The translations under genes and the position numbers were made by a program. From the NCBI GenBank assembly GCA_021324155.1, contig JAJPJQ010000051.1:199293-263292 (forward strand): a stretch of 64,000 nt of DNA, given 5' to 3'. Positions 1,764 to 64,000 of the stretch are shown piece by piece (the stretch's first letter is position 1; the number at the start of each line of letters is the position of its first letter). This stretch comes from Pseudomonadota bacterium. GTDB lineage: Bacteria; Desulfobacterota; Binatia; UBA9968. The notes beneath the pieces were generated by a model. That model worked only from the letters and a program-made list of their open reading frames with translations. It had not been told where the DNA came from and did no database searches.

Positions 1764-2177
1764 CTACTCTCTTAAGTAGCGTTTTTTCCCGGAGAGAACT
1801 CCGACTATAGCGGTTTTGAGAGCCTCAAGTCGGGGATGTACCCAAGTTTCCAAAGCAACCAAGCCGCCACCCATTCCGCCTCCGATTACCTCACCGACAT
1901 GATGTCTTTCGAAGCAAACGCGGGACATATCCCAATCATTGTTGGGCCACTCCATTTCATCGATATCCCTCAGAAGTCTCCGCAGTGTTTCCTCGGAACA
2001 TGCAACGTCCGAAGCCCTGGCGACGACATAAATTTCTCCACCTTCATCACCTTCCAAAATAACTACACCGTCCGCATCTCGTTGTGCCTCGGATAATGAG
2101 GCGAACGTGTGATGTTCGACGCCGTCAGCTTCGGCAATTAAGCTGAGCAGAGGACTGTCGATTTCTTTTTTCGACAT
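1764..2177 (-). CDS. hypothetical acidic protein (low-GC singleton)
   Basis: 137-aa ORF with no recognisable family. Local GC (~50%) is clearly below the flanking genes. Wedged between two substrate-binding protein genes. Confidence 0.4.
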   Translation of the reverse strand: MSKKEIDSPLLSLIAEADGVEHHTFASLSEAQRDADGVVILEGDEGGEIYVVARASDVACSEETLRRLLRDIDEMEWPNNDWDMSRVCFERHHVGEVIGGGMGGGLVALETWVHPRLEALKTAIVGVLSGKKRYLRE

Positions 2178-15677: not shown

Positions 15678-16670
15678 CTACTTCTCGACCGTGACACCCG
15701 CCTGCTGCAGAACGGAGCGCATTAAAACAATCTGCTCGTCGAAGAACGGACCTAGAGCCGCGCTTTTGAGAAAGACGTCCTCGACCTGATTCTCTTCCAG
15801 GTATTCTTTCCAGCTGCGAGTAGCCGCTAGCCGGGCGAAAAAGTCCTCCCAATAAGCGACTACCTCGCGACCCACCCCCGGAGGGGCCAGTATGCCGCGG
15901 GCATTCGCGATGATCGGCATCTGGATTCCCTGCTCCTTGATCGTCGGGAGATCCGGCAAAATCGCCAGCCGTTTCTCCGTAAAGGCCGCGATCGGCCGCA
16001 TCTTTCCGTTGGCGATGTACTCGTTTACATCCTGCGGCTGGGGAATGATGATCTGCACGTTGTTCGAGAGCAGATTTGCAATCCGGTCCTTGATCGCGGG
16101 CGTCGATACAAAAGTCCACTTCGCGCCGGTCGCGCTCTGGACAAGCAATCCCGTCAGGCTTTCGATGGCAGTCGCCGAGCCGCCCGCCTGCTTGAGGGCC
16201 ATGGGATTTTTCTTCGCCGCGGCGACGAAATCGTTCATCGTCTTGTACGGCGAATCGCCTCTGACCACTGCGATCGTCGGCTCGAGCACAAGCCGCACGA
16301 CCGGTGTGAGATCTTTGACGCTGTACTTCGCTTGCTTGCTCGTGAGCGGCGTCGCGACCCAAGTATTAGTGAAGACGGCGATTGTATGATCGTCGCCTTT
16401 CTTGGTTACGAGGTATTCCATCGCCTCGATGCTCGCGCCGGCAGTCTTGTTCACGACGCGCAACGACTGATCGAGCAGCTTCTCTTTTCCGATCATCTCG
16501 ACCACCGCGCGAGCGAAAACGTCGGAGCCGCCGCCGAGCGCGCTGTGCACCACGATCTCGACCGGGCGCGTCGGGTGAAAACTCTGCGCTCCGGCTACGA
16601 AAACTTGACAGAGAGACGCGATGTAACATCCGGTCGCGCAGAGTGCGTGCCGCGTAAATCTCATCGGCAT
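15678..16670 (-). CDS. tctC: tripartite tricarboxylate transporter substrate-binding protein (TctC/Bug family)
   Basis: ORF 15678..17114 trimmed to the Met at 16668-16670, which is preceded by AGGAGG. The N-terminal extension overlaps the upstream methyltransferase gene. ~330 aa with signal peptide and the Bug/TctC fold. No tctA/tctB is adjacent. Confidence 0.7.
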   Translation of the reverse strand: MPMRFTRHALCATGCYIASLCQVFVAGAQSFHPTRPVEIVVHSALGGGSDVFARAVVEMIGKEKLLDQSLRVVNKTAGASIEAMEYLVTKKGDDHTIAVFTNTWVATPLTSKQAKYSVKDLTPVVRLVLEPTIAVVRGDSPYKTMNDFVAAAKKNPMALKQAGGSATAIESLTGLLVQSATGAKWTFVSTPAIKDRIANLLSNNVQIIIPQPQDVNEYIANGKMRPIAAFTEKRLAILPDLPTIKEQGIQMPIIANARGILAPPGVGREVVAYWEDFFARLAATRSWKEYLEENQVEDVFLKSAALGPFFDEQIVLMRSVLQQAGVTVEK

Positions 16671-17494
16671 TCCTCCTTCGGCGCTGCGGGCTTTTTCGCC
16701 GCGCCGAGAATCGCCGGCATCGGCAGCTCCACAGCGCCGTTTCTGAGGTACAGGCCGCTGGCGTTGCTCATCATGGTGCGGATGCTGCGCAGCGCCTCCG
16801 GTGTCTGATGCCGCAACAATCCGGCGGTACGCACCGTCGCCGTTTGCATCGTCTGAAACAGCGCATCGACAGACGGCAACCGCCACGTCTGGGCAATTTT
16901 TTTCACCGCCGCATCCGTAAATCCCGCGGCGGCGAGCGACCGCGTGCTCTCCGCCCAGTCGCTGAAGCGAAAGAACGGCGGGCCGTCCGGCAGCGCGACG
17001 CGCATATCCCCGTGCGTCAGGATCGCGCCGAGTGTAATGCCAAAGCCCGCCGCCTCCTGCGGCTTCGCCCAGACGGTGAACGCGAAGCGTCCGCCCGGCC
17101 GGAGCACCCGGCACGCTTCGGCCAGCGCCTTGTCGGGATCGCCCAGGTGCAGCAGGCCGAAGTTCATCGTAACCGCGTCGAAGCTGCCCTCCGCAAACGG
17201 CAGCGCCTCAGCGTCGCCCTGCTCGAAATTCACTTCCGAATATGTCTGCTGCGCCGCGGCGACCATCGGCGCGGAGAAATCGACGCCGGTCACGATCGCC
17301 CCGCGCTGTGCCGCCGCGCCCGCAACGTACCCGGGACCGCTCGCAACGTCGAGCAGGCGGATGCCGGATTCCGCGTTGACGGCGTCCAGCAAGGGCCCGA
17401 TCGACTGCTGTGTCAATTCGCCGAACGCGCCGGCGTACTCGTCGGCGACACTCTCCCAGCCCGCCCGCTCGAAGTCTTTGAAGCTCTGGGACAT
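16661..17494 (-). CDS. class I SAM-dependent methyltransferase (type 11)
   Basis: LLDVASGPGYVAG is a glycine-rich SAM motif I. Also has DAVTMNFGLLHL and LRPGGRF motifs. Start trimmed to MSQSFKDF. Confidence 0.7.
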   Translation of the reverse strand: MSQSFKDFERAGWESVADEYAGAFGELTQQSIGPLLDAVNAESGIRLLDVASGPGYVAGAAAQRGAIVTGVDFSAPMVAAAQQTYSEVNFEQGDAEALPFAEGSFDAVTMNFGLLHLGDPDKALAEACRVLRPGGRFAFTVWAKPQEAAGFGITLGAILTHGDMRVALPDGPPFFRFSDWAESTRSLAAAGFTDAAVKKIAQTWRLPSVDALFQTMQTATVRTAGLLRHQTPEALRSIRTMMSNASGLYLRNGAVELPMPAILGAAKKPAAPKEECR

Positions 17495-19519: not shown

Positions 19520-20023
19520 TCAACAGCGATCCGAAAGTCGGAGACCCGAGAGTCGGGCCGTCGAAAGCTTCAGGTGACTATGCAGACCTCCGATGACGGC
19601 CGCCCGCTCCATCAAAGCCGTCAATTGTCCTTCGTGCGCCACCTCGAAGAGCAGAATGGACGCGAGACGCAGCTGATTTTCTGCAACGTAGGCACGCAGC
19701 TGCTCGTCGCTCCCGATCTTCCAGATGCGTCCGAAAGCACGCATCACCGCAAGGACAGTAGGTGCTACGTCGGAAAGACCGGCTGTATCGAGGAGCTTCG
19801 GAAGCGACTCTGGCGATTCTTCATGAACCAAAGCGGTTAACCTTAACGCGATGATTTCCGCATAGTCCTTATCGGCGGCCGTCTCTACGCGCCGGTAAAC
19901 CTCGCCTATATGCTCGAAGAGTTTCACCGGAAATTTTCCAAGCCGACTCCCGGCGGCGGCGCTGGCGATACTCGAATACGAGCCGGGTCGCGAAATCAGT
20001 TGTCGAAGGTCCGAATCACTCAT
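19520..20023 (-). CDS. hypothetical protein carried on the insert
   Basis: 167-aa ORF, lower GC, no family recognised. The only intact ORF inside the repeat-bracketed insert. Confidence 0.35.
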   Translation of the reverse strand: MSDSDLRQLISRPGSYSSIASAAAGSRLGKFPVKLFEHIGEVYRRVETAADKDYAEIIALRLTALVHEESPESLPKLLDTAGLSDVAPTVLAVMRAFGRIWKIGSDEQLRAYVAENQLRLASILLFEVAHEGQLTALMERAAVIGGLHSHLKLSTARLSGLRLSDRC

Positions 20024-22066: not shown

Positions 22067-22441
22067 ATGGCTCAGATCGCAGCGGTAGGCGTGGGGGGTT
22101 TTCTCGGTTCGATACTTCGGTATCTTCTCAGCGGATGGGTTCACCGGACGCTGGCGAGCGATTGGTTCCCCTATGGCACACTCGCAGTCAACGTCATCGG
22201 CTGTCTGCTCATCGGATTTTTAGCGGGAGTGGAAGAAAAACACGCCGTCTTCACGGCGGACGTTCGCCTATTTATTTTCATCGGAATCGTAGGAGGTTTT
22301 ACTACATTTTCAGCGTTCGCGTATGAAACCGTTCTGTTAGCGCGCAATGCTCAACTGCTGACTGCATTCGCGAACGTGCTTGTCGAGCTTACGGCGGGAT
22401 TATTCGCGGTCGGCATCGGTCACTGGCTGAGTCGCTTTTAG
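22067..22441 (+). CDS. crcB: fluoride ion channel CrcB/Fluc
   Basis: 124-aa four-TM protein with GGFLGSILRY and GGFTTFSAF signature motifs. It directly follows the riboswitch. Confidence 0.85.
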   Translation: MAQIAAVGVGGFLGSILRYLLSGWVHRTLASDWFPYGTLAVNVIGCLLIGFLAGVEEKHAVFTADVRLFIFIGIVGGFTTFSAFAYETVLLARNAQLLTAFANVLVELTAGLFAVGIGHWLSRF

Positions 22442-25414: not shown

Positions 25415-26410
25415 ATGAAAAAGCTCACTGTCGGCATCGATCTGGTCCCGCTCACGCGGCGGCAACTCCTGCGCGGCGCAGCTATCGGCGCCGGAGCGGC
25501 ACTGTTACCCTGGGATGTCGCCCGCGCGCAGGCAACCAAGCTCCAGGTCGGCACGATCAAGATCGGCGACCTCTCGCCGTTCTTCATTGCCCAGGAAAAA
25601 GGCTACTTCAAAGAAGCCGGCCTCGACATCAACCCGGTCGCGATGGTCGGTGGCGCGGCGATCCAGCCTGCGCTCGCCTCCGGCGCCCTCAACATCGGCT
25701 GGTCGAACGTCGTGTCGACGTTCCAGGGCCACCAGGAGGGCTTCGACTATCGGTTCATCACGAGCGGCGCGCTCGCTAAACGCGGGACCAACGAGGTCTT
25801 CGGCGTTCAAGTCGCGGCCGATTCGCCGATCAAGTCGGCGAAGGATCTCGCCGGCAAGACCATCGCAACCAACACGATCGGAAACATCACGCAGGCGATC
25901 GGCTCGCATTGGGTCGACAACAACGGCGGCGACTCCTCGAAGCTCAAATGGGTCGAGGTGCCGTTTCCGAACATGGAAGCGGCCGTCGTGCAAAAGCACA
26001 TCGATGCCTTCACCGCCGTCGAGCCGTTCGTGACCGTGCCGTCGCAGGTGAACAAAAAAACCCGCGTGCTCGCGCGGCCGGCTGGGGGCATCGCGCCGCG
26101 CTTCATGATCGCGTCGTTTTTCGCGAGCGACGCGTGGATTCAAAAAAACGAAGGCACCGTCAAGGCCTTCGTCGGCGCGCTCCACCGCGGCATCGATACG
26201 CATAATGCCGATCTCGATGGCGCGAAGGTCATCATCGGCAAACACACCGGCTTATCGCCCGATGTCCTGAAGGTCATGACGCTGACCGCTTTCGAAAAAA
26301 AGCTGCTCGAATCCGATCTCGAGCCGATCATGGATTTGGCGCTGCGGTACAAGCTGATCAACAGAAAATTCCCCGTGCGTGACGTGATAGCGAAGTTCGC
26401 GCTCGCGTAA
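25415..26410 (+). CDS. ABC-type substrate-binding protein, NMT1/THI5 (SsuA/TauA-like) family, Tat signal
   Basis: 331-aa ORF. TRRQLLRGAAIGAGAALLP is a twin-arginine signal. GYFKEAGLD and LAGKTIAT are family motifs. Confidence 0.7.
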   Translation: MKKLTVGIDLVPLTRRQLLRGAAIGAGAALLPWDVARAQATKLQVGTIKIGDLSPFFIAQEKGYFKEAGLDINPVAMVGGAAIQPALASGALNIGWSNVVSTFQGHQEGFDYRFITSGALAKRGTNEVFGVQVAADSPIKSAKDLAGKTIATNTIGNITQAIGSHWVDNNGGDSSKLKWVEVPFPNMEAAVVQKHIDAFTAVEPFVTVPSQVNKKTRVLARPAGGIAPRFMIASFFASDAWIQKNEGTVKAFVGALHRGIDTHNADLDGAKVIIGKHTGLSPDVLKVMTLTAFEKKLLESDLEPIMDLALRYKLINRKFPVRDVIAKFALA

Positions 26411-26426: not shown

Positions 26427-27473
26427 ATGCCTATGCGCAAAACGCTAATGGGACAACTTCGAACCGCGGCGTTCTTCTTGGCGGTTTTCTTCGCATCCGC
26501 TTCGACGCAGGCGCAGACCCCGCGCTCGGTCGGTATCGGATCGAATCCCGCCGGCACGATCTACTATGCGCTGGCGAGCGGCCTCGCCAACGTCGTCACC
26601 GGCGCCGCGCCGTTCCAGATGACGGTGCAGCCCTACACCGGCAGCAGCACTTATCTACCGCTCCTCGACAACGGTGAGCTCGAGTTTGGCATGGTCAACG
26701 CTGTCGACATGGCGCTCGCCTACAACGGTCCCGACCGCCTCAAGATCGGCGGCCGGAATCCTTATCCTTTTGCGCCGAACACGCGGCTCATCATGCGCGG
26801 CACGCCGCTTCAGAGCAGCCTCGTGGTCCGCAAAGACGCGCCGATCAAAAATATTTACGACGTGAAAGGCAAACGCGTGACGGGCGAATACCCGGCGCAG
26901 CTCGCCGTCTGGTACAACGTCTTCGGCTCGCTCTCGAACGCGGGGCTCACGTGGAGCGACGTCAAGGTCGTGCCGGTGCCCGCCGTGAACGAAGGAATGG
27001 ACGCGCTCATCGCCGGACGCGCTGACGCATCGACGCATGCGATCGGCTCGGCGAAAATCAAGGAGGCGGATGCCTCGGTCGGCATCCGGTACATCTCGCT
27101 CGATTGCTCGCCGCAGGCGGAAGATCGGATGAAGAAAGCGGTGCCGGGCTACTACCTCGCCCATCTCAAAGCCGGCTCGTCGACCGGCATTCTCGAGGAC
27201 ATCTGCGGCTTCGCCTACGACATTTACATGATCGGCCACAAGGGCGTGCCCGACGCCGTCGTGCAAGGGACGCTAAAAGCGATCTGGGACAACGTCGCGA
27301 AGCTCCCGCCGCTCCATCCGAACTTCAAGGACTGGACGCGCGAGCGCGCCGCCAGCGCCGATGTCACCATGCCGTACCATCCGGCCGCCGTGCAGTTCTA
27401 TAAAGAAAAAGGCGTGTGGAACGCCAAGATGGACGAGGCACAGAAAAGATTGCTGGCGGTCAATCAAAAATAA
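26427..27473 (+). CDS. TRAP transporter solute receptor, TAXI family
   Basis: 348-aa ORF with a signal peptide. IGSNPAGTIYYALASGLANVV matches the TAXI N-terminal block. Immediately upstream of the fused TRAP permease gene. Confidence 0.7.
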   Translation: MPMRKTLMGQLRTAAFFLAVFFASASTQAQTPRSVGIGSNPAGTIYYALASGLANVVTGAAPFQMTVQPYTGSSTYLPLLDNGELEFGMVNAVDMALAYNGPDRLKIGGRNPYPFAPNTRLIMRGTPLQSSLVVRKDAPIKNIYDVKGKRVTGEYPAQLAVWYNVFGSLSNAGLTWSDVKVVPVPAVNEGMDALIAGRADASTHAIGSAKIKEADASVGIRYISLDCSPQAEDRMKKAVPGYYLAHLKAGSSTGILEDICGFAYDIYMIGHKGVPDAVVQGTLKAIWDNVAKLPPLHPNFKDWTRERAASADVTMPYHPAAVQFYKEKGVWNAKMDEAQKRLLAVNQK

Positions 27474-27561: not shown

Positions 27562-29532
27562 TTGAGCGACGATTTCGCTATCGCCTCGAAATTTCGCAGC
27601 CCGACCGGTTTTCCCGGCGCGCTCGGCCGCTTCTTTCTCTGCAGCATCACGGTCCTGGGCTCCTTCTGGGGCATGGGGGTGCAGCATTATCTCCCATGGG
27701 CCTTTTTCAACCAGCAGTATCTCGGGCTTTTTTTCGCACTCGCGATGGCGAGCGTTTTTCTCCTCGTCAAGGCGCGCGCGAAAGACAGCGCGACGGATGT
27801 GCCGTGGCACGATTGGCTGCTCACGGCGGCAGCGCTCGGTACCGGCGGCTACGTCGCCGTCATGTATCCCACGCTCGCTTACCGCCTCGGGGTGCTCTCA
27901 CCGGATCGATGGATACTCGGAGGCATCGCCGTCCTACTCGTGCTCGAAGCCGCGCGGCGCGTTGCCGGCGGCACGCTGGCATGGGTAGCGCTCGGCTGCG
28001 TCCTCTACGCGAACCTCGCTTATCTGTTCCCTGGTCTGCTCTATGCGCGCGGCTCTTCGTGGGCGCGCATCGCGAGCTACTTGTATCTGGATTCCGGCGG
28101 CATTTTGGGCGTGCCGCTCGACGTCGCCGCGACCGTGCTCGTCGCCTACATTTTTTTCGGGCAGGCGCTGTACGCCGTCGGCGGCGATAAATTCTTGATC
28201 GATCTAGCGCTCGTCGCGATGGGCCGCTACCGCGGCGGCTCCGCCAAAGTATCCATCGTGTCGTCGGCTCTTTTCGGCATGGTCTCAGGCAGCGCGGTCG
28301 CGAACGTGGCGGTGAACGGCGCGATCAGCATCCCAATGATGAAGCGCTCCGGCTACGCCGCGCACATGGCGGCGGCGATCGAGGCGGTGGCTTCGACCGG
28401 CGGACAGATCATGCCGCCGGTCATGGGCGCGGCGGCGTTTTTGATGGCGGAATTCTTGAACATCAGCTACGGCCAGGTCGCACTCGCCGCTGCGATCCCC
28501 GCCTCCCTCTATTATCTCGCGCTCTTCGTTCAGGTCGATCTCGAAGCGGCGAAGAAAGGTCTCGCCGGTCTTCCCGCCGAGCAGGTTCCGCGCCTGAGAA
28601 ATGTCATGCGGCGCGGCTGGGTGTTTCTGATTCCGCTGGCCGCGCTCGTCTTCGGGCTCATGATCGCCGATTGGGACGCCGGCAAAGCGGGCATGGCCGC
28701 CGTCATCACCGTCTTCGCCGTCGGCGCGCTGCAAAAGGAGACCCGGCCGACGCCCGCAAAAATTCTCCGCGCGTTCGAGGAAACCGGCCGCACGATGCTC
28801 GACATCGCCGCGATCGTCGCGCTCGCCGGCGTCGTGATCGGTGCACTTCAGCTCTCGGCGATCGCCTTCAAGCTCTCGATGCTGCTCGTGAGCATCTCCG
28901 GCGGGCACGCGCTGCTGCTGCTCACGCTGACGGCCGTCGGCTGCCTGTTTCTCGGGCTGCCGCTGCCGACGACCGTGGTTTACATCATGCTGGCGGTCCT
29001 CGCCGCCCCCGCGCTAGTGCAGGTCGGCATTCCGCCGCTCGCGGCGCATCTGTTTCTATTTTATTTCGGCATGATCTCGCTAATCACGCCCCCGGACTGT
29101 CTGCCGGTCTACGTCGCCGCGGCGATCGCCAAGGCGGATTTCTGGAAAACCGGCTGGCTCGGCATGCGCCTCGCGATTGCCGCCTATATCGTGCCGTTCA
29201 TCTTCGCTTTCCATCCGGCGCTGATCCTGATGGGGACGGTGGCGGAGATCGTTGTTTCCGTCGTCGCCGCCTCGATCGGCGTCTTTTTTCTCGGCGCGGC
29301 GTGCGCGGGCTACCTGTTCCGGGCGCTTCCGTGGTGGAAATGCGGCCTGTTCGGCGCCGCGGCGCTGCTGCTGCTGCTGCCGAAGTGGAGCGGCGCAGCG
29401 CTCGCGCTCGACGCCGCCGGACTTGCGCTCGGCGTCATAATTATTCTATGGGAATGGAACCGATCGGCTGCCGCCGCGACCCGCCCGGAATCCGCCCAGC
29501 GGCTCGAGAATCTCGGATCCGGCAAAACATAG
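27562..29532 (+). CDS. TRAP transporter fused permease (TAXI-type 4TM/12TM DctQM fusion)
   Basis: 656-aa polytopic membrane protein with long hydrophobic segments throughout. Downstream of the TAXI receptor. Confidence 0.75.
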   Translation: MSDDFAIASKFRSPTGFPGALGRFFLCSITVLGSFWGMGVQHYLPWAFFNQQYLGLFFALAMASVFLLVKARAKDSATDVPWHDWLLTAAALGTGGYVAVMYPTLAYRLGVLSPDRWILGGIAVLLVLEAARRVAGGTLAWVALGCVLYANLAYLFPGLLYARGSSWARIASYLYLDSGGILGVPLDVAATVLVAYIFFGQALYAVGGDKFLIDLALVAMGRYRGGSAKVSIVSSALFGMVSGSAVANVAVNGAISIPMMKRSGYAAHMAAAIEAVASTGGQIMPPVMGAAAFLMAEFLNISYGQVALAAAIPASLYYLALFVQVDLEAAKKGLAGLPAEQVPRLRNVMRRGWVFLIPLAALVFGLMIADWDAGKAGMAAVITVFAVGALQKETRPTPAKILRAFEETGRTMLDIAAIVALAGVVIGALQLSAIAFKLSMLLVSISGGHALLLLTLTAVGCLFLGLPLPTTVVYIMLAVLAAPALVQVGIPPLAAHLFLFYFGMISLITPPDCLPVYVAAAIAKADFWKTGWLGMRLAIAAYIVPFIFAFHPALILMGTVAEIVVSVVAASIGVFFLGAACAGYLFRALPWWKCGLFGAAALLLLLPKWSGAALALDAAGLALGVIIILWEWNRSAAAATRPESAQRLENLGSGKT

Positions 29533-29570
29533 CGACGATTCTTAACGGTATCCGGATTACACATCAGGCG

Positions 29571-30011
29571 ATGATAGATCTTAAGTGTCAACCGCTGCGT
29601 AAAGCCGACTTTGAAATATGGCTTCAGATGGGCCGGAAACTTTGGCCCAAATACGGCAATCTCCGGCGTGATTTCGAGAGAATTTCGAAATTGTCGTACG
29701 AGAAGGTTTTCATCTGCTGGGCGGGCAAAATTCCGGCTGGTTTTGTCGAAGTCTCGCTGCGCAGGGATTACGTCGAGGGCGCGAATTCGTCGCCGACCGG
29801 ATACCTCGAGGGCATTTTTGTCGAGAAACGATTTCGCAAGAACGGCGTCGCGCGCATGCTCGTGCGCGAAGCCGAAGCGTGGGCGAAAAGTAAAGGAGCC
29901 ACGGAGTTGGGTTCCGACACGCGGCTGAGTAACCGAAGGAGCCAAAAGTTTCACAAGGCGCTCGGCTTCATACAAGTCGAAAAGAATGTGGCATTCATAA
30001 AGGAGCTGTAA
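29571..30011 (+). CDS. GNAT acetyltransferase, aminoglycoside 6'-N-acetyltransferase AAC(6')-I-like
   Basis: The real gene is the 3' part of the run-through ORF 28671..30011. It is 146 aa from ATG 29571 and GC drops to ~50%. Blocks LWP, RRDYVEGANSSPTGYLEGIFVEKRFRKNGVA, SDTRLSN..SQKFHKALGF align with the AAC(6')-Iy-type pattern (IRHDYVNGCDSSPVVFLEGIFV..FRQRGVA...SDTS.EN..SQKVHQALGF), recalled from memory. Confidence 0.6.
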   Translation: MIDLKCQPLRKADFEIWLQMGRKLWPKYGNLRRDFERISKLSYEKVFICWAGKIPAGFVEVSLRRDYVEGANSSPTGYLEGIFVEKRFRKNGVARMLVREAEAWAKSKGATELGSDTRLSNRRSQKFHKALGFIQVEKNVAFIKEL

Positions 30012-30055
30012 ACAACGTCCTCGCGCTCCGTAGAATGTCGGCATTAGGGGAATAA

Positions 30056-31045
30056 ATGAAATTCGGCATTTTTAACATCGGCGATTACCATCCGCAGTCG
30101 AGTAAGCCGATTCCCGATTATTACGACGACATGCTCGAGCAGGTCGAATGGGCCGAGCGCCTCGGCTACGATGCGTTCTGGTTCGGCGAGCATCACTTCG
30201 ATTTCTTCGGCGTCGTGCCGGCACCGCCGGTGATGATGGCCGCCGCGGCCAAGCGCACGACAACAATCCGTATCGGCGTCGCGGTGGCGCTGCTGCCCTA
30301 TCACAATCCGATCACGATCGCGGAAGAGTACGCGATGGTCGACATCTTAAGCCGCGGCCGGCTCGATTTCGGCGTCGGCCGCGGCACGCCGCCCGAGCTG
30401 AAAGGCTTCGGCGTGACCGAAGACAACCGCGACAAGGTCGTCGAGGCGCTCGAAGTCGTGAAGATGGGCTGGCGCGACAGCAGAATCGAATTTCACGGCA
30501 AGTACTACAATATTCCCGGAGTCAACCTGAACGTAACGCCGGTGCAAAAGCCGTGGCCGCCGCTGTACTTCGCCGCGCTCAGCCCGGGCTCATACGAGGT
30601 AGCCGGCGAGAAAGGCTACCCGATCCTCGGCATTCCCTACGCGAGCTGCACGGACATGGCGGACGTGAAGCAAAAACTCGCGTTCTACAAAGACCGGCTC
30701 GCCGCGCACGGCCACGATCCGAAGAAAATCGATATTGTCGAATGCTTTCACACCCACGTCGCGATGACCGAGAAGGAGGCCGACAGAAACGGCCGCGCCG
30801 GGCTCGTCCCCTATCTCACGGCGCGCAAGTCGATCCGGCCGCGCGACTACGACGAGCTCTACCGCCAGCGCATGATCATGGTCGGCGACCCTAAGCACTG
30901 CGCCGACCACATCGAGGAGGTGCGCGCGGCGGGAAGCAATTACGTCATGTTCCTGATGAACTTCGCGACGCTCGAGCAGGAAAAAATCCTCGCGTCGATG
31001 GAGATCATGGCAAAAGAAGTGCTGCCGAAGTTCGCGGGAAAATAA
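30056..31045 (+). CDS. LLM-class (luciferase-like) flavin/F420-dependent oxidoreductase
   Basis: 329-aa ORF. DAFWFGEHHF and the following TIM-barrel pattern are typical of the bacterial luciferase-like monooxygenase family. Confidence 0.75.
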   Translation: MKFGIFNIGDYHPQSSKPIPDYYDDMLEQVEWAERLGYDAFWFGEHHFDFFGVVPAPPVMMAAAAKRTTTIRIGVAVALLPYHNPITIAEEYAMVDILSRGRLDFGVGRGTPPELKGFGVTEDNRDKVVEALEVVKMGWRDSRIEFHGKYYNIPGVNLNVTPVQKPWPPLYFAALSPGSYEVAGEKGYPILGIPYASCTDMADVKQKLAFYKDRLAAHGHDPKKIDIVECFHTHVAMTEKEADRNGRAGLVPYLTARKSIRPRDYDELYRQRMIMVGDPKHCADHIEEVRAAGSNYVMFLMNFATLEQEKILASMEIMAKEVLPKFAGK

Positions 31046-58660: not shown

Positions 58661-59215
58661 TTACCGCCCGATTTGTGACCTGTATTCTTTTACCGCCTTT
58701 ACGAAATTAGGTATCTTCTCGGGTGGGATGTCGTCGTATATGGGAATATTCTCATTTGCTGCTTCACGACCCCTTATTGGATTCGGTTCCAATTTAACGA
58801 CGCCGAGCAAAGGACGATTTCGCCGCTCAGCCATGTCCTTCTCGTCGGCGAACCATCCCTTAAAAAAACGGTATCGTGGCTTGAAAATTGTGAAAACTGG
58901 GAAGTCGGTATTCGAGGGAGCGCGCCGCTCGATCTCCGGCGCGTTCACAACGAAGTAGCCTTGGTCGTCGGTTAGTACTTCCACCGCATCGTAAAATTGA
59001 GTGTTGGTTTGTACGACGGCATATAGCTCGTAATACCAAGCCGCGACCACTGCGGCTCCGCGGATGGGCAAGTTGGTTCGCGCATCCACCACCTGACCTC
59101 GATACGGACCTCGTGTGCCCCAAAGAGAATAATCGCCAGTCCTTCTCGCGGCGCAACCGGACGATATTGGAAGCAAAATCAAAAAAAGTAAGAAGATCTT
59201 GATAGTCGATTGCAT
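58661..59215 (-). CDS. hypothetical lipoprotein (lower GC)
   Basis: 184-aa ORF with signal plus lipobox (ISSGC). GC clearly below the neighbours. No family recognised. Confidence 0.4.
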   Translation of the reverse strand: MQSTIKIFLLFLILLPISSGCAARRTGDYSLWGTRGPYRGQVVDARTNLPIRGAAVVAAWYYELYAVVQTNTQFYDAVEVLTDDQGYFVVNAPEIERRAPSNTDFPVFTIFKPRYRFFKGWFADEKDMAERRNRPLLGVVKLEPNPIRGREAANENIPIYDDIPPEKIPNFVKAVKEYRSQIGR

Positions 59216-63007: not shown

Positions 63008-63352
63008 CCTAAGAATCCGGCCAGCGGTCCGCCAATTATGGCGCAGGCCCTTTACAGCTTAGCAATTTTGCTTCATGCACCGAAGGCCAACGTTTCAAGA
63101 CACAAGCACACCAGAACGACGCCGCACGACGGATCTGAAACTCACCCAAGAATTTGCTAAGATCGCAAAACGCCGAATGCCGAGTTACTTAGAAAGAGCG
63201 CGGCCCGGCCTGATTAATGTGACAAGCTCGTCCCTGTTCTGCAACGGAGCCGCGATGACTACTATTAACATCCCCCGCCGCACAGGTTGCCGGAATTGAT
63301 CACCGCCCGCACCGAAAGACGGGCCGCGCGGCGGATTTTTTTCGGCTGGTAC

Positions 63353-64000
63353 ATGGTCGCCGCGAGCGTCGTGGCGAACACGATCTTCTCGGCCGCCTAC
63401 TTCCAGGGCTTCGGCGTTCTCATTCTTCCGATCGAGCGCGCCTTCGGCTGGGACCGCTGGGTTATCTCGGCCGCCATGTCGCTGCGCCAGCTGGAGTCCG
63501 GCATCGTCAGTCCGGCCGTCGGCTTCCTGCTCGACCGCGTCAGCGGGCGTAAGTTGATTTTCTGGAGCGCCGTCATCTCCGGCGCCGGCTTCATCGGCCT
63601 CGGCTTTACTAGCGGCGTGGTCACGTTTTTTATTTTTTTCGTGATCATTTCGCTGGGCGCATCCGGCGTCAGTCATGCGGTCACCTGGCCGGTGATCATC
63701 TCGCGATGGTTTCGCCGCAATCGGGGCCTGGCCACCGGCCTTGCGGTGACCGGCCCGATCTTCGGCTCGCCGTTCGTCATACTCAACACGCAAATCGAGG
63801 AGGCCTACGGCTGGCGCGTTGTCCTCTTCGCCTACGGCGCGCTCGTCCTCGTCATTGTCACCCTAATCAGCATGCTGGTGCGCGATCGACCGGAGCCTTA
63901 CGGTCTCACGCCCGACGGTGATCCGCCCGAGGGGGGCGCCGCCGCGCAGCGCCTCGCCGGCGCGCCGTACAAGCGAGCGGATGCGGGACTGACGCTCCGC
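63353..64000 (+). CDS. MFS transporter (partial, continues beyond window; start uncertain)
   Basis: From ATG 63353: MVAASVVANTIFSAAYFQGFGVLILPIERAFGW... with successive TM helices. The basic stretch just upstream (RRAARRIFFGWY) is in frame, so a GTG/TTG start further 5' is possible. Confidence 0.55.
   Translation, partial: MVAASVVANTIFSAAYFQGFGVLILPIERAFGWDRWVISAAMSLRQLESGIVSPAVGFLLDRVSGRKLIFWSAVISGAGFIGLGFTSGVVTFFIFFVIISLGASGVSHAVTWPVIISRWFRRNRGLATGLAVTGPIFGSPFVILNTQIEEAYGWRVVLFAYGALVLVIVTLISMLVRDRPEPYGLTPDGDPPEGGAAAQRLAGAPYKRADAGLTLR

Follow-up and report, generated by a model that had tools for sequence, protein, structure and literature searches.

An AAC(6')-I-like acetyltransferase gene inserted into a TAXI-TRAP transporter operon of uncultured Binatia: a probable aminoglycoside-modifying enzyme

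Between the permease gene of a TRAP transporter and a gene for a luciferase-like oxidoreductase, a Binatia genome carries a short reading frame of low GC content. The locus raises three questions: whether the frame is a gene, whether its product modifies aminoglycosides, and how it came to lie inside a transporter operon. We studied it in a stretch of 64,000 nucleotides from contig JAJPJQ010000051.1 (assembly GCA_021324155.1), which we call the window; all positions are those of the window, and the features discussed are collected in Table 1. An initial annotation had described the frame as a horizontally acquired gene for an AAC(6')-I-like aminoglycoside acetyltransferase. The reading that we favor, with a probability of about 0.62, is that the gene codes for an AAC(6')-like accessory enzyme of Binatia, with aminoglycoside 6'-N-acetylation as its probable activity, and that it goes back to a single old insertion into the transporter operon.

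In a mechanical list of open reading frames the gene is visible only as the tail, the last third, of a run-through frame of 446 amino acids with a TTG start (28671..30011, forward strand). The first ~300 codons of this long frame are Arg/Ala-rich and run off-frame across the TRAP permease gene, whose own frame is a different one. The frame that concerns us begins with the ATG at 29571 and continues for 146 codons to the TAA at 30009-30011, with a product that reads MIDLKCQPLRKADFEIWLQMGRKLWPKYGN at its start and NVAFIKEL at its end. The 146-aa GNAT proposed by the initial annotation is therefore borne out in its frame, in its place at the end of the 446-aa frame, and in the sequence blocks that had been quoted for it (LWP, RRDYVEGANSSPTGYLEGIFVEKRFRKNGVA and SDTRLSNRRSQKFHKALGF), all of which are present in the translation. 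No ATG, GTG or TTG codon occurs between the stop codon of the permease gene (TAG, 29530-29532) and 29571, so the latter is the earliest possible start. Orthologs and solved enzymes can be aligned from residue 5-7 of the protein onward, which fixes the 146-aa model.

The same gene is already in the public databases in a shortened form. The window matches contig JBAIGY010000017.1 of the metagenome-assembled genome (MAG) GCA_037025705.1 exactly; the locus from that MAG, our L001, is a 20,321-nt exact substring of the window, from position 19691. Its gene model (P0005) begins 40 codons late, at an internal TTG, and the resulting 106-aa protein has no name from any source. This truncated protein scores 131.3 bits against the NCBIfam family model NF043067, failing the cutoff of 140, so that calling the start too late is enough to put the deposited protein below the threshold for naming the family. 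Family calls near a cutoff are fragile in this way.

A gene that is listed only inside a run-through frame, has a weak ribosome-binding site and is truncated in its public model might be a spurious ORF, or a pseudogene decaying in an intergenic stretch. We give this reading practically no chance, because the evidence of selection and of homology disproves it. Between the window and three syntenic orthologs the dN/dS ratio of the AAC gene is 0.07-0.16, the same range as in the flanking permease, LLM (luciferase-like) and TAXI genes (0.07-0.17). A ratio of ~0.1 sits poorly with decay, and so do an end-to-end alignment with curated family models and solved structures, an AlphaFold model with a pLDDT of 94.6, and catalytic motifs that are invariant. 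The 146-aa gene is real, and purifying selection acts on it.

Table 1. Features of the AAC locus and of its neighbors in the window
Feature	Position	Strand	Evidence or remark
SsuA/NMT1-like solute-binding protein, first in same-strand cluster	25415..26410	+	
TAXI-family TRAP solute-binding subunit	26427..27473	+	TIGR02122, 146.7 vs cutoff 84.35
TRAP transporter fused permease, upstream flank of the insertion	27562..29532	+	TIGR02123, 587 vs cutoff 321
Spurious 5' part of the 446-aa run-through ORF	28671..29570	+	off-frame read over the permease gene
38-nt spacer, permease stop to AAC start	29533..29570	.	only a weak Shine-Dalgarno sequence (AGG)
CDS of GNAT of AAC(6')-I sub-family A type, 146 aa	29571..30011 (including stop)	+	translation, NF043067, match to 1s3z, predicted fold, dN/dS
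Trp25, LWP block	29643..29645	+	aligns with Trp22 of AAC(6')-Iy (1s3z); nearly invariant in 89 homologs
Internal TTG, codon 41, start of the public 106-aa model	29691..29693	+	P0005/L001 gene model, GCA_037025705.1
Glu80, LEGIF block	29808..29810	+	aligns with Glu79 of AAC(6')-Iy; invariant in 89 homologs
R89-K-N-G92-V-A94, putative acetyl-CoA pyrophosphate-binding motif (R/Q-x-x-G-x-G/A)	29835..29852	+	sequence
Asp116, GSDT block	29916..29918	+	aligns with Asp115 of AAC(6')-Iy; invariant in 89 homologs
44-nt spacer, AAC stop to LLM start	30012..30055	.	without inverted repeat
Luciferase-like (LLM class) flavin oxidoreductase, downstream flank	30056..31045	+	adjoins the permease in AAC-less relatives

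By sequence, the protein is a GNAT well above the gathering score of the Pfam family PF00583 (64.6 bits against a cutoff of 20.7, residues 26-133), and its best NCBIfam match is NF043067, 'AAC_6p_group_E' (E = 2.5e-42). This model is an equivalog with the product name aminoglycoside 6'-N-acetyltransferase, and is the family-level model that NCBI uses for naming. The match spans positions 3-140 of the 140 in the model, and its 144.1 bits clear the curated cutoff of 140 by only 4 bits, so membership is marginal. The syntenic orthologs score 148-153 bits and a sister clade from Binatia 137-139 bits, just under the cutoff, which means that the Binatia clade as a whole (137-153 bits) straddles it. 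The matches that follow NF043067 are 17 models for named AAC(6') alleles, with scores of 36-100 bits against cutoffs of 225-325. The highest of these are for AAC(6')-III (99.6 against 305), Iy/Iaa (98.7 against 270) and the Acinetobacter model (94.8 against 225), and none of the allele-specific cutoffs (Iy/Iaa, Ig-Ix, Iad, AacA48, III and others) is reached. RimI, PaiA and other generic GNAT models follow with at most 28 bits.

A sequence search of the PDB gave the same picture. The three leading matches are AAC(6')-Iy (1s3z; E = 6e-27), AAC(6')-Ig (4evy; 4e-25) and AAC(6')-Ih (4e8o; 6e-22), and the next has an E-value of 4.5e-5. Over 136-141 aligned residues the identity to these enzymes is 38.2%, 35.5% and 32.9%, respectively. 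Identity thus stays above the 30% below which the protein would have looked like a generic GNAT, and the active-site blocks do align, so the description as AAC(6')-I-like holds. Existing names point in the same direction: NCBI already calls one ortholog (P0002) 'aminoglycoside 6'-N-acetyltransferase' and JGI calls another (P0001) 'aminoglycoside 6'-N-acetyltransferase I', while many homologs with 40-50% identity are named merely 'GNAT family N-acetyltransferase' by NCBI. Sequence and predicted structure together support assignment of the protein to the AAC(6')-I lineage, and not to the generic GNATs.

The predicted structure is an AlphaFold2 monomer model built on 89 homologs, with a mean pLDDT of 94.6 and a pTM of 0.87. 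All of the top 10 Foldseek matches are chains of AAC(6')-Iy, -Ig or -Ih (TM 0.86-0.92, rmsd 1.7-1.8 Å, 142-146 columns); superposed on 1s3z, 4evy and 4e8o, the model has TM scores of 0.90-0.92 and an rmsd of 1.7 Å. The next structural family, a polyamine acetyltransferase (DpA), follows at TM 0.79 and rmsd 3.2 Å. The monomer model leaves the last 16 residues (131-146) without an intramolecular strand. AAC(6')-Iy, -Ig and -Ih are grouped as 'sub-family A' of AAC(6')-I in the summary of Stogios et al. (2017) given in PMC5722643, which describes sub-family A enzymes as dimers with domains swapped through the C-terminal beta-strand, and as acetylating substrates other than aminoglycosides as well. 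A C-terminus without a strand in the model is compatible with such a strand-swapped dimer but proves nothing, and the Binatia enzyme would most likely be a dimer of this kind.

Twelve alignment columns are invariant in the 89 homologs: L24, F58, R64, D66, Y67, E69, G70, G77, E80, G81, R89 and D116. The residues W25, E80, R89 and D116 match the same residues in AAC(6')-Iy, -Ig and -Ih. For AAC(6')-Iy, we take Trp22, Glu79 and Asp115 to be residues that contact the aminoglycoside in its structure, with the Trp stacked on an aminoglycoside ring. In GNATs, the loop that binds the pyrophosphate of acetyl-CoA follows strand beta4; in our protein this loop aligns with FRQRGVA of AAC(6')-Iy, with R89 invariant and G92 and A94 conserved in at least 90% of the 89 homologs. 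At position 69, all 89 environmental homologs have Glu, where AAC(6')-Iy, -Ig and -Ih have Asn. This replacement could mark a different specificity.

The conserved residues suggest how the enzyme might work. Acetyl-CoA would be bound through the R89-x-x-G92-x-A94 loop, and a ternary complex would form from enzyme, acetyl-CoA and a polyamine-like or polycationic substrate, which Trp25, Glu80 and Asp116 would hold in place. A primary amine of the substrate would then attack the thioester directly; the likeliest candidate is the 6'-NH2 on ring I of an aminoglycoside. Acetylation of the 6' position would abolish binding of the drug to the ribosomal A-site, and a resistance phenotype might follow. 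The resistance profile typical of AAC(6')-I enzymes includes amikacin and leaves out gentamicin C1.

An antibiotic is not necessarily the physiological substrate, given that sub-family A enzymes also acetylate non-aminoglycosides according to the summary in PMC5722643. It is possible, though on balance we doubt it, that an enzyme of this fold and lineage has its real job on some other amine (a polyamine, an amino sugar, or an amine of a peptide or protein) and that any turnover of aminoglycosides is incidental. Besides the substrate range summarized in that source, several features of the Binatia protein would suit such a role: the borderline NF043067 score (144 against 140) with a sister clade below the cutoff, the Glu at position 69 in place of the Asn of the characterized enzymes, a polyamine acetyltransferase (DpA) as the next-best structural neighbor, and purifying selection on an old, chromosomal gene in a lineage from soil. 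The distance to the polyamine enzymes is large, however, both in structure (TM 0.79 and 3.2 Å, against 0.92 and 1.7 Å for the AAC(6') enzymes) and in sequence (E = 9e-5 against 6e-27), and the Trp, Glu and Asp residues aligned with those of AAC(6')-Iy that presumably contact the aminoglycoside are all kept. We therefore retain 6'-N-acetylation of aminoglycosides as the probable activity.

The position of the gene can be compared with that in related genomes. Besides the window (represented also by L001 and by the near-identical L002), the site is occupied in L003-L009 and L011, where orthologs 78-82% identical to the window protein lie in exactly the same slot, from the TRAP fused permease to the LLM gene, both on contigs from soil metagenomes and in MAGs of Binatia. 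Scanning with the LLM protein yielded 10 further loci (L010, L012-L015, L021, L022, L024, L063 and L083) that keep the synteny of solute-binding protein, TAXI subunit, permease and LLM gene, but have no AAC gene. In eight of them (L013-L015, L021, L022, L024, L063 and L083) the LLM gene starts only 8-50 nt from the permease stop. The other two, L010 and L012, have a spacer of ~120-160 nt with a GC-rich, REP-like palindrome, which is absent from the window; a TBLASTN search for a remnant of the AAC gene in L010 or L012 found none. The junction sequences are too diverged to define the boundaries of the insertion; an 8-mer, TAAACAAC, is common to the L012 spacer and the region of the stop codon in the window, and is too short to count.

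A phylogenetic tree of the flanks (648 columns from permease and LLM) shows that all the more distant lineages lack the AAC gene, including L015, on a contig labeled Verrucomicrobiia. The AAC gene is an insertion relative to an ancestral, tightly packed permease-LLM junction. In the same tree, every one of 200 bootstraps unites the window, L009 and L011 in a clade with L010 and L012, which are empty, and none shows the holders of the AAC gene as monophyletic. The simplest account of this distribution would be a single insertion, with the gene lost or replaced afterward in the ancestry of L010 and L012. The insertion is old: the slot is shared by orthologs from holders whose flanking proteins have only 85-94% identity to those of the window, and the synonymous divergence (dS) of the AAC gene is 1.0-1.4.

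One insertion plus losses may be too simple, because the trees of the AAC gene and its flanks disagree and because the AAC gene has the higher dS. In pairs of the window with a relative, dS of the AAC gene is 2-4 times that of the flanks, and between L009 and L011 the two are about equal. In the AAC tree, which is based on 143 columns only, the window groups with L009 and L011 in just 1 of 300 bootstraps. Moreover, all the orthologs have kept a low GC content at third codon positions (GC3) despite saturation of their synonymous sites. This combination of low GC3, dS and tree pattern could come from a relaxed codon bias, from faster evolution or from recombination at the slot. A more far-reaching idea, which we regard as unlikely, is that the permease-LLM junction is a recurrently exchanged slot for single genes, with the AAC gene moving between lineages without recognizable mobility machinery. 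It would fit the persistently low GC3, the raised dS, the disagreement between trees, the REP-like palindrome in relatives, and the purifying selection on the gene.

For the single insertion that we favor, we propose the following history. The AAC gene would have entered the chromosome of uncultured soil Binatia once, as a single accessory gene, in the ancestor of a sub-clade. Its target would have been an existing operon in which a TAXI-TRAP transporter with its permease was followed by the LLM gene, and some descendants would now carry the REP-like palindrome in the slot instead.

The base composition of the gene bears on its origin. Its GC content is 0.524 (0.537, 0.395 and 0.639 at the first, second and third codon positions), whereas the five neighboring genes have 0.595-0.648, with GC3 of 0.78-0.82. 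When codons for the AAC protein were sampled from the codon usage of the window itself, the expected GC3 was 0.787 ± 0.033 (z = -4.4), and the observed value was reached in none of 5000 simulations. The dip is real and mostly synonymous. The initial annotation had seen it as a low-GC islet in surroundings of ~68% GC; the dip stands, but the flanks are at 0.60-0.65 and the window mean is 0.614.

Low GC is nevertheless insufficient as proof of foreign origin. CrcB, a conserved gene at 22067-22441, is more extreme in its GC3 (z = -7.5), and the ORFs at 1764-2177, 15678-17114, 58661-59215 and 63185-63793 are also strongly GC3-poor. Because conserved native genes of the window are at least as atypical, composition alone is weak evidence for acquisition. 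The syntenic orthologs share the dip, with GC3 of 0.65-0.68 compared to 0.81-0.87 in their own neighbors. The family is not low in GC by nature, because GC3 is 0.79-0.82 in the sister clade from Binatia.

This sister clade consists of the nearest relatives of the syntenic genes, P0004 and P0006-P0011, which are 66-70% identical to them; in the AAC tree, 262 of 300 bootstraps group the four syntenic orthologs themselves as a clade. The genes of the sister clade are native in composition and lie in a different context, between ECF sigma/anti-sigma genes and a PAP2 gene. At least one contig with this arrangement belongs to Binatia, judging from its Prs protein, which has 85-96% identity to proteins of Binatia/Binatota MAGs. 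Identity within the Binatia branch is 66-82%. All other homologs that we found are at most 51% identical, and most are from Bacteroidota. The family looks like a Binatia-associated branch, of which the copy in the window would be a compositionally odd member at a second locus.

The 10 kb on either side of the AAC gene contain no genes for an integrase or a transposase and none of plasmid type; nor did we find direct or inverted repeats flanking it or, by eye, attC core sites of the RYYYAAC/GTTRRRY type. The downstream spacer, at only 44 nt, has no room for an attC site. With none of these elements at the locus, we reject an integron cassette, and the gene bears no mark of another mobile aac(6') module. 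The horizontal acquisition that had been proposed thus holds in part: the gene is inserted relative to an ancestral permease-LLM junction, but the event is ancient and without a signature of mobility, and the nearest relatives are Binatia genes.

A TBLASTN search of 72,556 plasmids matched 173 records, all with less than 60% identity. The best matches, at 36-42%, are AAC(6')-E606, AacA48/AAC(6')-Iag, AAC(6')-III and genes on rhizobial or cyanobacterial megaplasmids; the best plasmid-borne AAC(6') genes are 39-42% identical over 85-95% of the query. A progenitor of a mobilized clinical aac(6') gene would be expected to have a plasmid allele more than 90% identical to it, and none among the 72,556 plasmids is above ~42%. 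With the allele models also far below their cutoffs, we find no basis for the earlier suggestion that the gene is an environmental AAC(6') progenitor.

That suggestion belongs to a wider one, of a recently acquired low-GC resistance islet that might have given rise to clinical aac(6') genes. The composition (GC 0.524 and GC3 0.639, against ~0.62 and ~0.81 in the flanks; z = -4.4) and the empty sites in close relatives are what such an islet would show. We consider it very improbable, since the insertion is too old and the gene too distant from the clinical alleles. Orthologs in the same slot have an equally low GC3 (0.65-0.68) and an AAC dS of 1.0-1.4, which indicates an old event, and native genes such as CrcB are just as GC3-poor. 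The surroundings of the gene show neither mobility genes nor an attC site nor flanking repeats, and the genes most closely related to it are likewise from Binatia. Identity to plasmid-borne AAC(6') reaches only 39-42%, and the allele-specific models give 65-100 bits against cutoffs of 225-325.

The TAXI-TRAP pair that had been placed upstream of the gene is verified by the scores of both of its members (Table 1). The genes of the cluster, from the first solute-binding protein to the LLM gene, share one strand, with successive gaps of 16, 88, 38 and 44 nt. We found no terminator-like site in the 38-nt and 44-nt spacers, and the single promoter-like match (30009-30036) is at chance level. Matches to Rfam, searched for RNA elements between the genes, are all far below the gathering scores. 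In the ortholog at L003, the ATG of the AAC gene overlaps the permease stop codon as ATGA. Because of the shared strand, the short gaps, the lack of a terminator-like site in the spacers and this overlap, the AAC gene is likely to be transcribed by read-through from the transporter operon, and we infer co-transcription from this arrangement. Expression may be low, because the ribosome-binding site is poor and two orthologs (L009 and L011) have no canonical start codon; their apparent start is a CTG behind AAGGAG. The operon predates the arrival of the AAC gene, so its transporter and oxidoreductase are no safe guide to the substrate of the enzyme and add little to the case for a non-antibiotic amine.

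The picture of the origins of clinical aac(6') genes is unchanged by this locus, because the gene has neither signs of mobility nor close kinship to clinical alleles. It also holds little surprise for a specialist, because automated pipelines already give its orthologs the same name. What is useful is the correction of an annotation and the description of an insertion polymorphism, in which a conserved transporter operon received one gene in a clean, datable event. If the slot were exchanged between lineages and the enzyme were a true aminoglycoside acetyltransferase, there would be a new, Binatia-specific branch of AAC(6')-I enzymes, maintained by selection from soil producers of aminoglycosides.

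Among known enzymes, the plasmid- or integron-borne AacA48/AAC(6')-Iag, AAC(6')-E606 and AAC(6')-III belong to the same protein family as the Binatia protein, but their identity to it is only 39-42%, and the Binatia gene is without their context of attC site, integrase or plasmid. Within 'AAC_6p_group_E' the Binatia protein passes the cutoff (144.1 against 140) over the whole model, yet stands at the edge of the family. AAC(6')-Ig and -Ih of Acinetobacter (4evy and 4e8o) are similar to it in sequence (36% and 33% identity) and fold (TM 0.92), and the C-terminal 16 residues that lack a strand in our monomer model would fit their strand-swapped dimer; with 94.8 bits against the Acinetobacter cutoff of 225, however, it is not one of their alleles. 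The closest counterpart is AAC(6')-Iy/AAC(6')-Iaa of Salmonella enterica (1s3z), a 'cryptic' chromosomal enzyme. Here, too, the score (98.7 bits against a model cutoff of 270) indicates another allele family, the Binatia protein has Glu69 in place of Asn, and its host is an uncultured member of Binatia in which its activity is only predicted. The two proteins are nevertheless alike in length (~145 aa), in sequence (38% identity), in the LWP, LEGIF, R-x-x-G-x-A and SDT blocks, and in the fold of the whole chain (TM 0.92, rmsd 1.7 Å). The Salmonella AAC(6')-Iy gene is chromosomal and lies next to transport genes without a promoter of its own, and the Binatia gene resembles it in this arrangement.

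The public record of the AAC(6')-like gene (assembly GCA_037025705.1, contig JBAIGY010000017.1) uses an internal TTG start, which gives a 106-residue protein that is missing the LWP block. Against NF043067, the curated AAC(6') family model with a cutoff of 140 bits, this public version scores 131.3 bits and so falls below the cutoff, whereas the full 146-residue protein scores 144.1 bits. In L009 and L011, two related loci that carry the gene in the same slot, it lies in frame with the TAG stop codon of the upstream TRAP permease gene, and from that stop to the protein's conserved N-terminus neither locus has an ATG, GTG or TTG codon. An AAGGAG box precedes an in-frame CTG (L009:9968) by 5 nt, which suggests that these orthologs use a non-canonical start.

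The gene has a sister clade (66–70% identity) on other Binatia contigs, flanked by an ECF sigma/anti-sigma pair on one side and by a PAP2 or DUF2846 gene on the other. These copies have native composition (GC3 0.79–0.82), and several of their gene models are likewise truncated at the N-terminus, at the methionine of the conserved MGRKLWP. Within the window, several other genes and ORFs besides the acetyltransferase fall far short of the usual GC3 of the window, with z-scores between -7 and -10, among them crcB, a conserved fluoride channel gene; a Pfam scan of two window ORFs (1764-2177 and 58661-59215) found no match for either.

Coordinates of the features discussed
Feature	Locus	Position
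Public AAC gene model	window	29691-30011
AAC 5' region	L009	9935-10003
AAC 5' region, equivalent	L011	upstream of 5518
GC3-poor genes/ORFs	window	22067-22441 (+); 1764-2177 (-); 58661-59215 (-); 63185-63793 (-); 15678-17114 (-)
Sister-clade gene	L087	6001-6387
Sister-clade gene	L089	6001-6450
GC-rich palindrome	L010	1076-1100
GC-rich palindrome	L012	2194-2220
GC-rich palindrome	L003	1962-1988
GC-rich palindrome	L006, L007, L070, L076, L084-L086	
Verrucomicrobiia-labelled entry	L015 (DATJFG010000030.1)	
Verrucomicrobiae-labelled entry	P0106	
Glu69 codon (DYVEG block)	window	29775-29777

In the close relatives L010 and L012, which lack the acetyltransferase gene, the spacer between the permease and LLM oxidoreductase genes is occupied by a GC-rich palindrome with the pattern TAGGGGCnG...CnGCCCCTA (for example, GTAGGGGCGGGTTTGAAACCCGCCCCTAC). 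The same palindrome is repeated at unrelated sites in Binatia and also Dehalococcoidia loci, and appears to be a dispersed element of REP-like type; a search of the window found no copy. Some contigs labeled as Verrucomicrobia contain genes that are 86–95% identical to Binatia genes. For L015, a more distant locus lacking the acetyltransferase gene, and for the entry P0106, the label in the public record probably results from an error in MAG binning.

Glu69 is invariant across the 89 environmental homologs in the alignment. The characterized enzymes AAC(6')-Iy, -Ig and -Ih instead have Asn at this position (YVNG), and Glu69 may be a specificity determinant.
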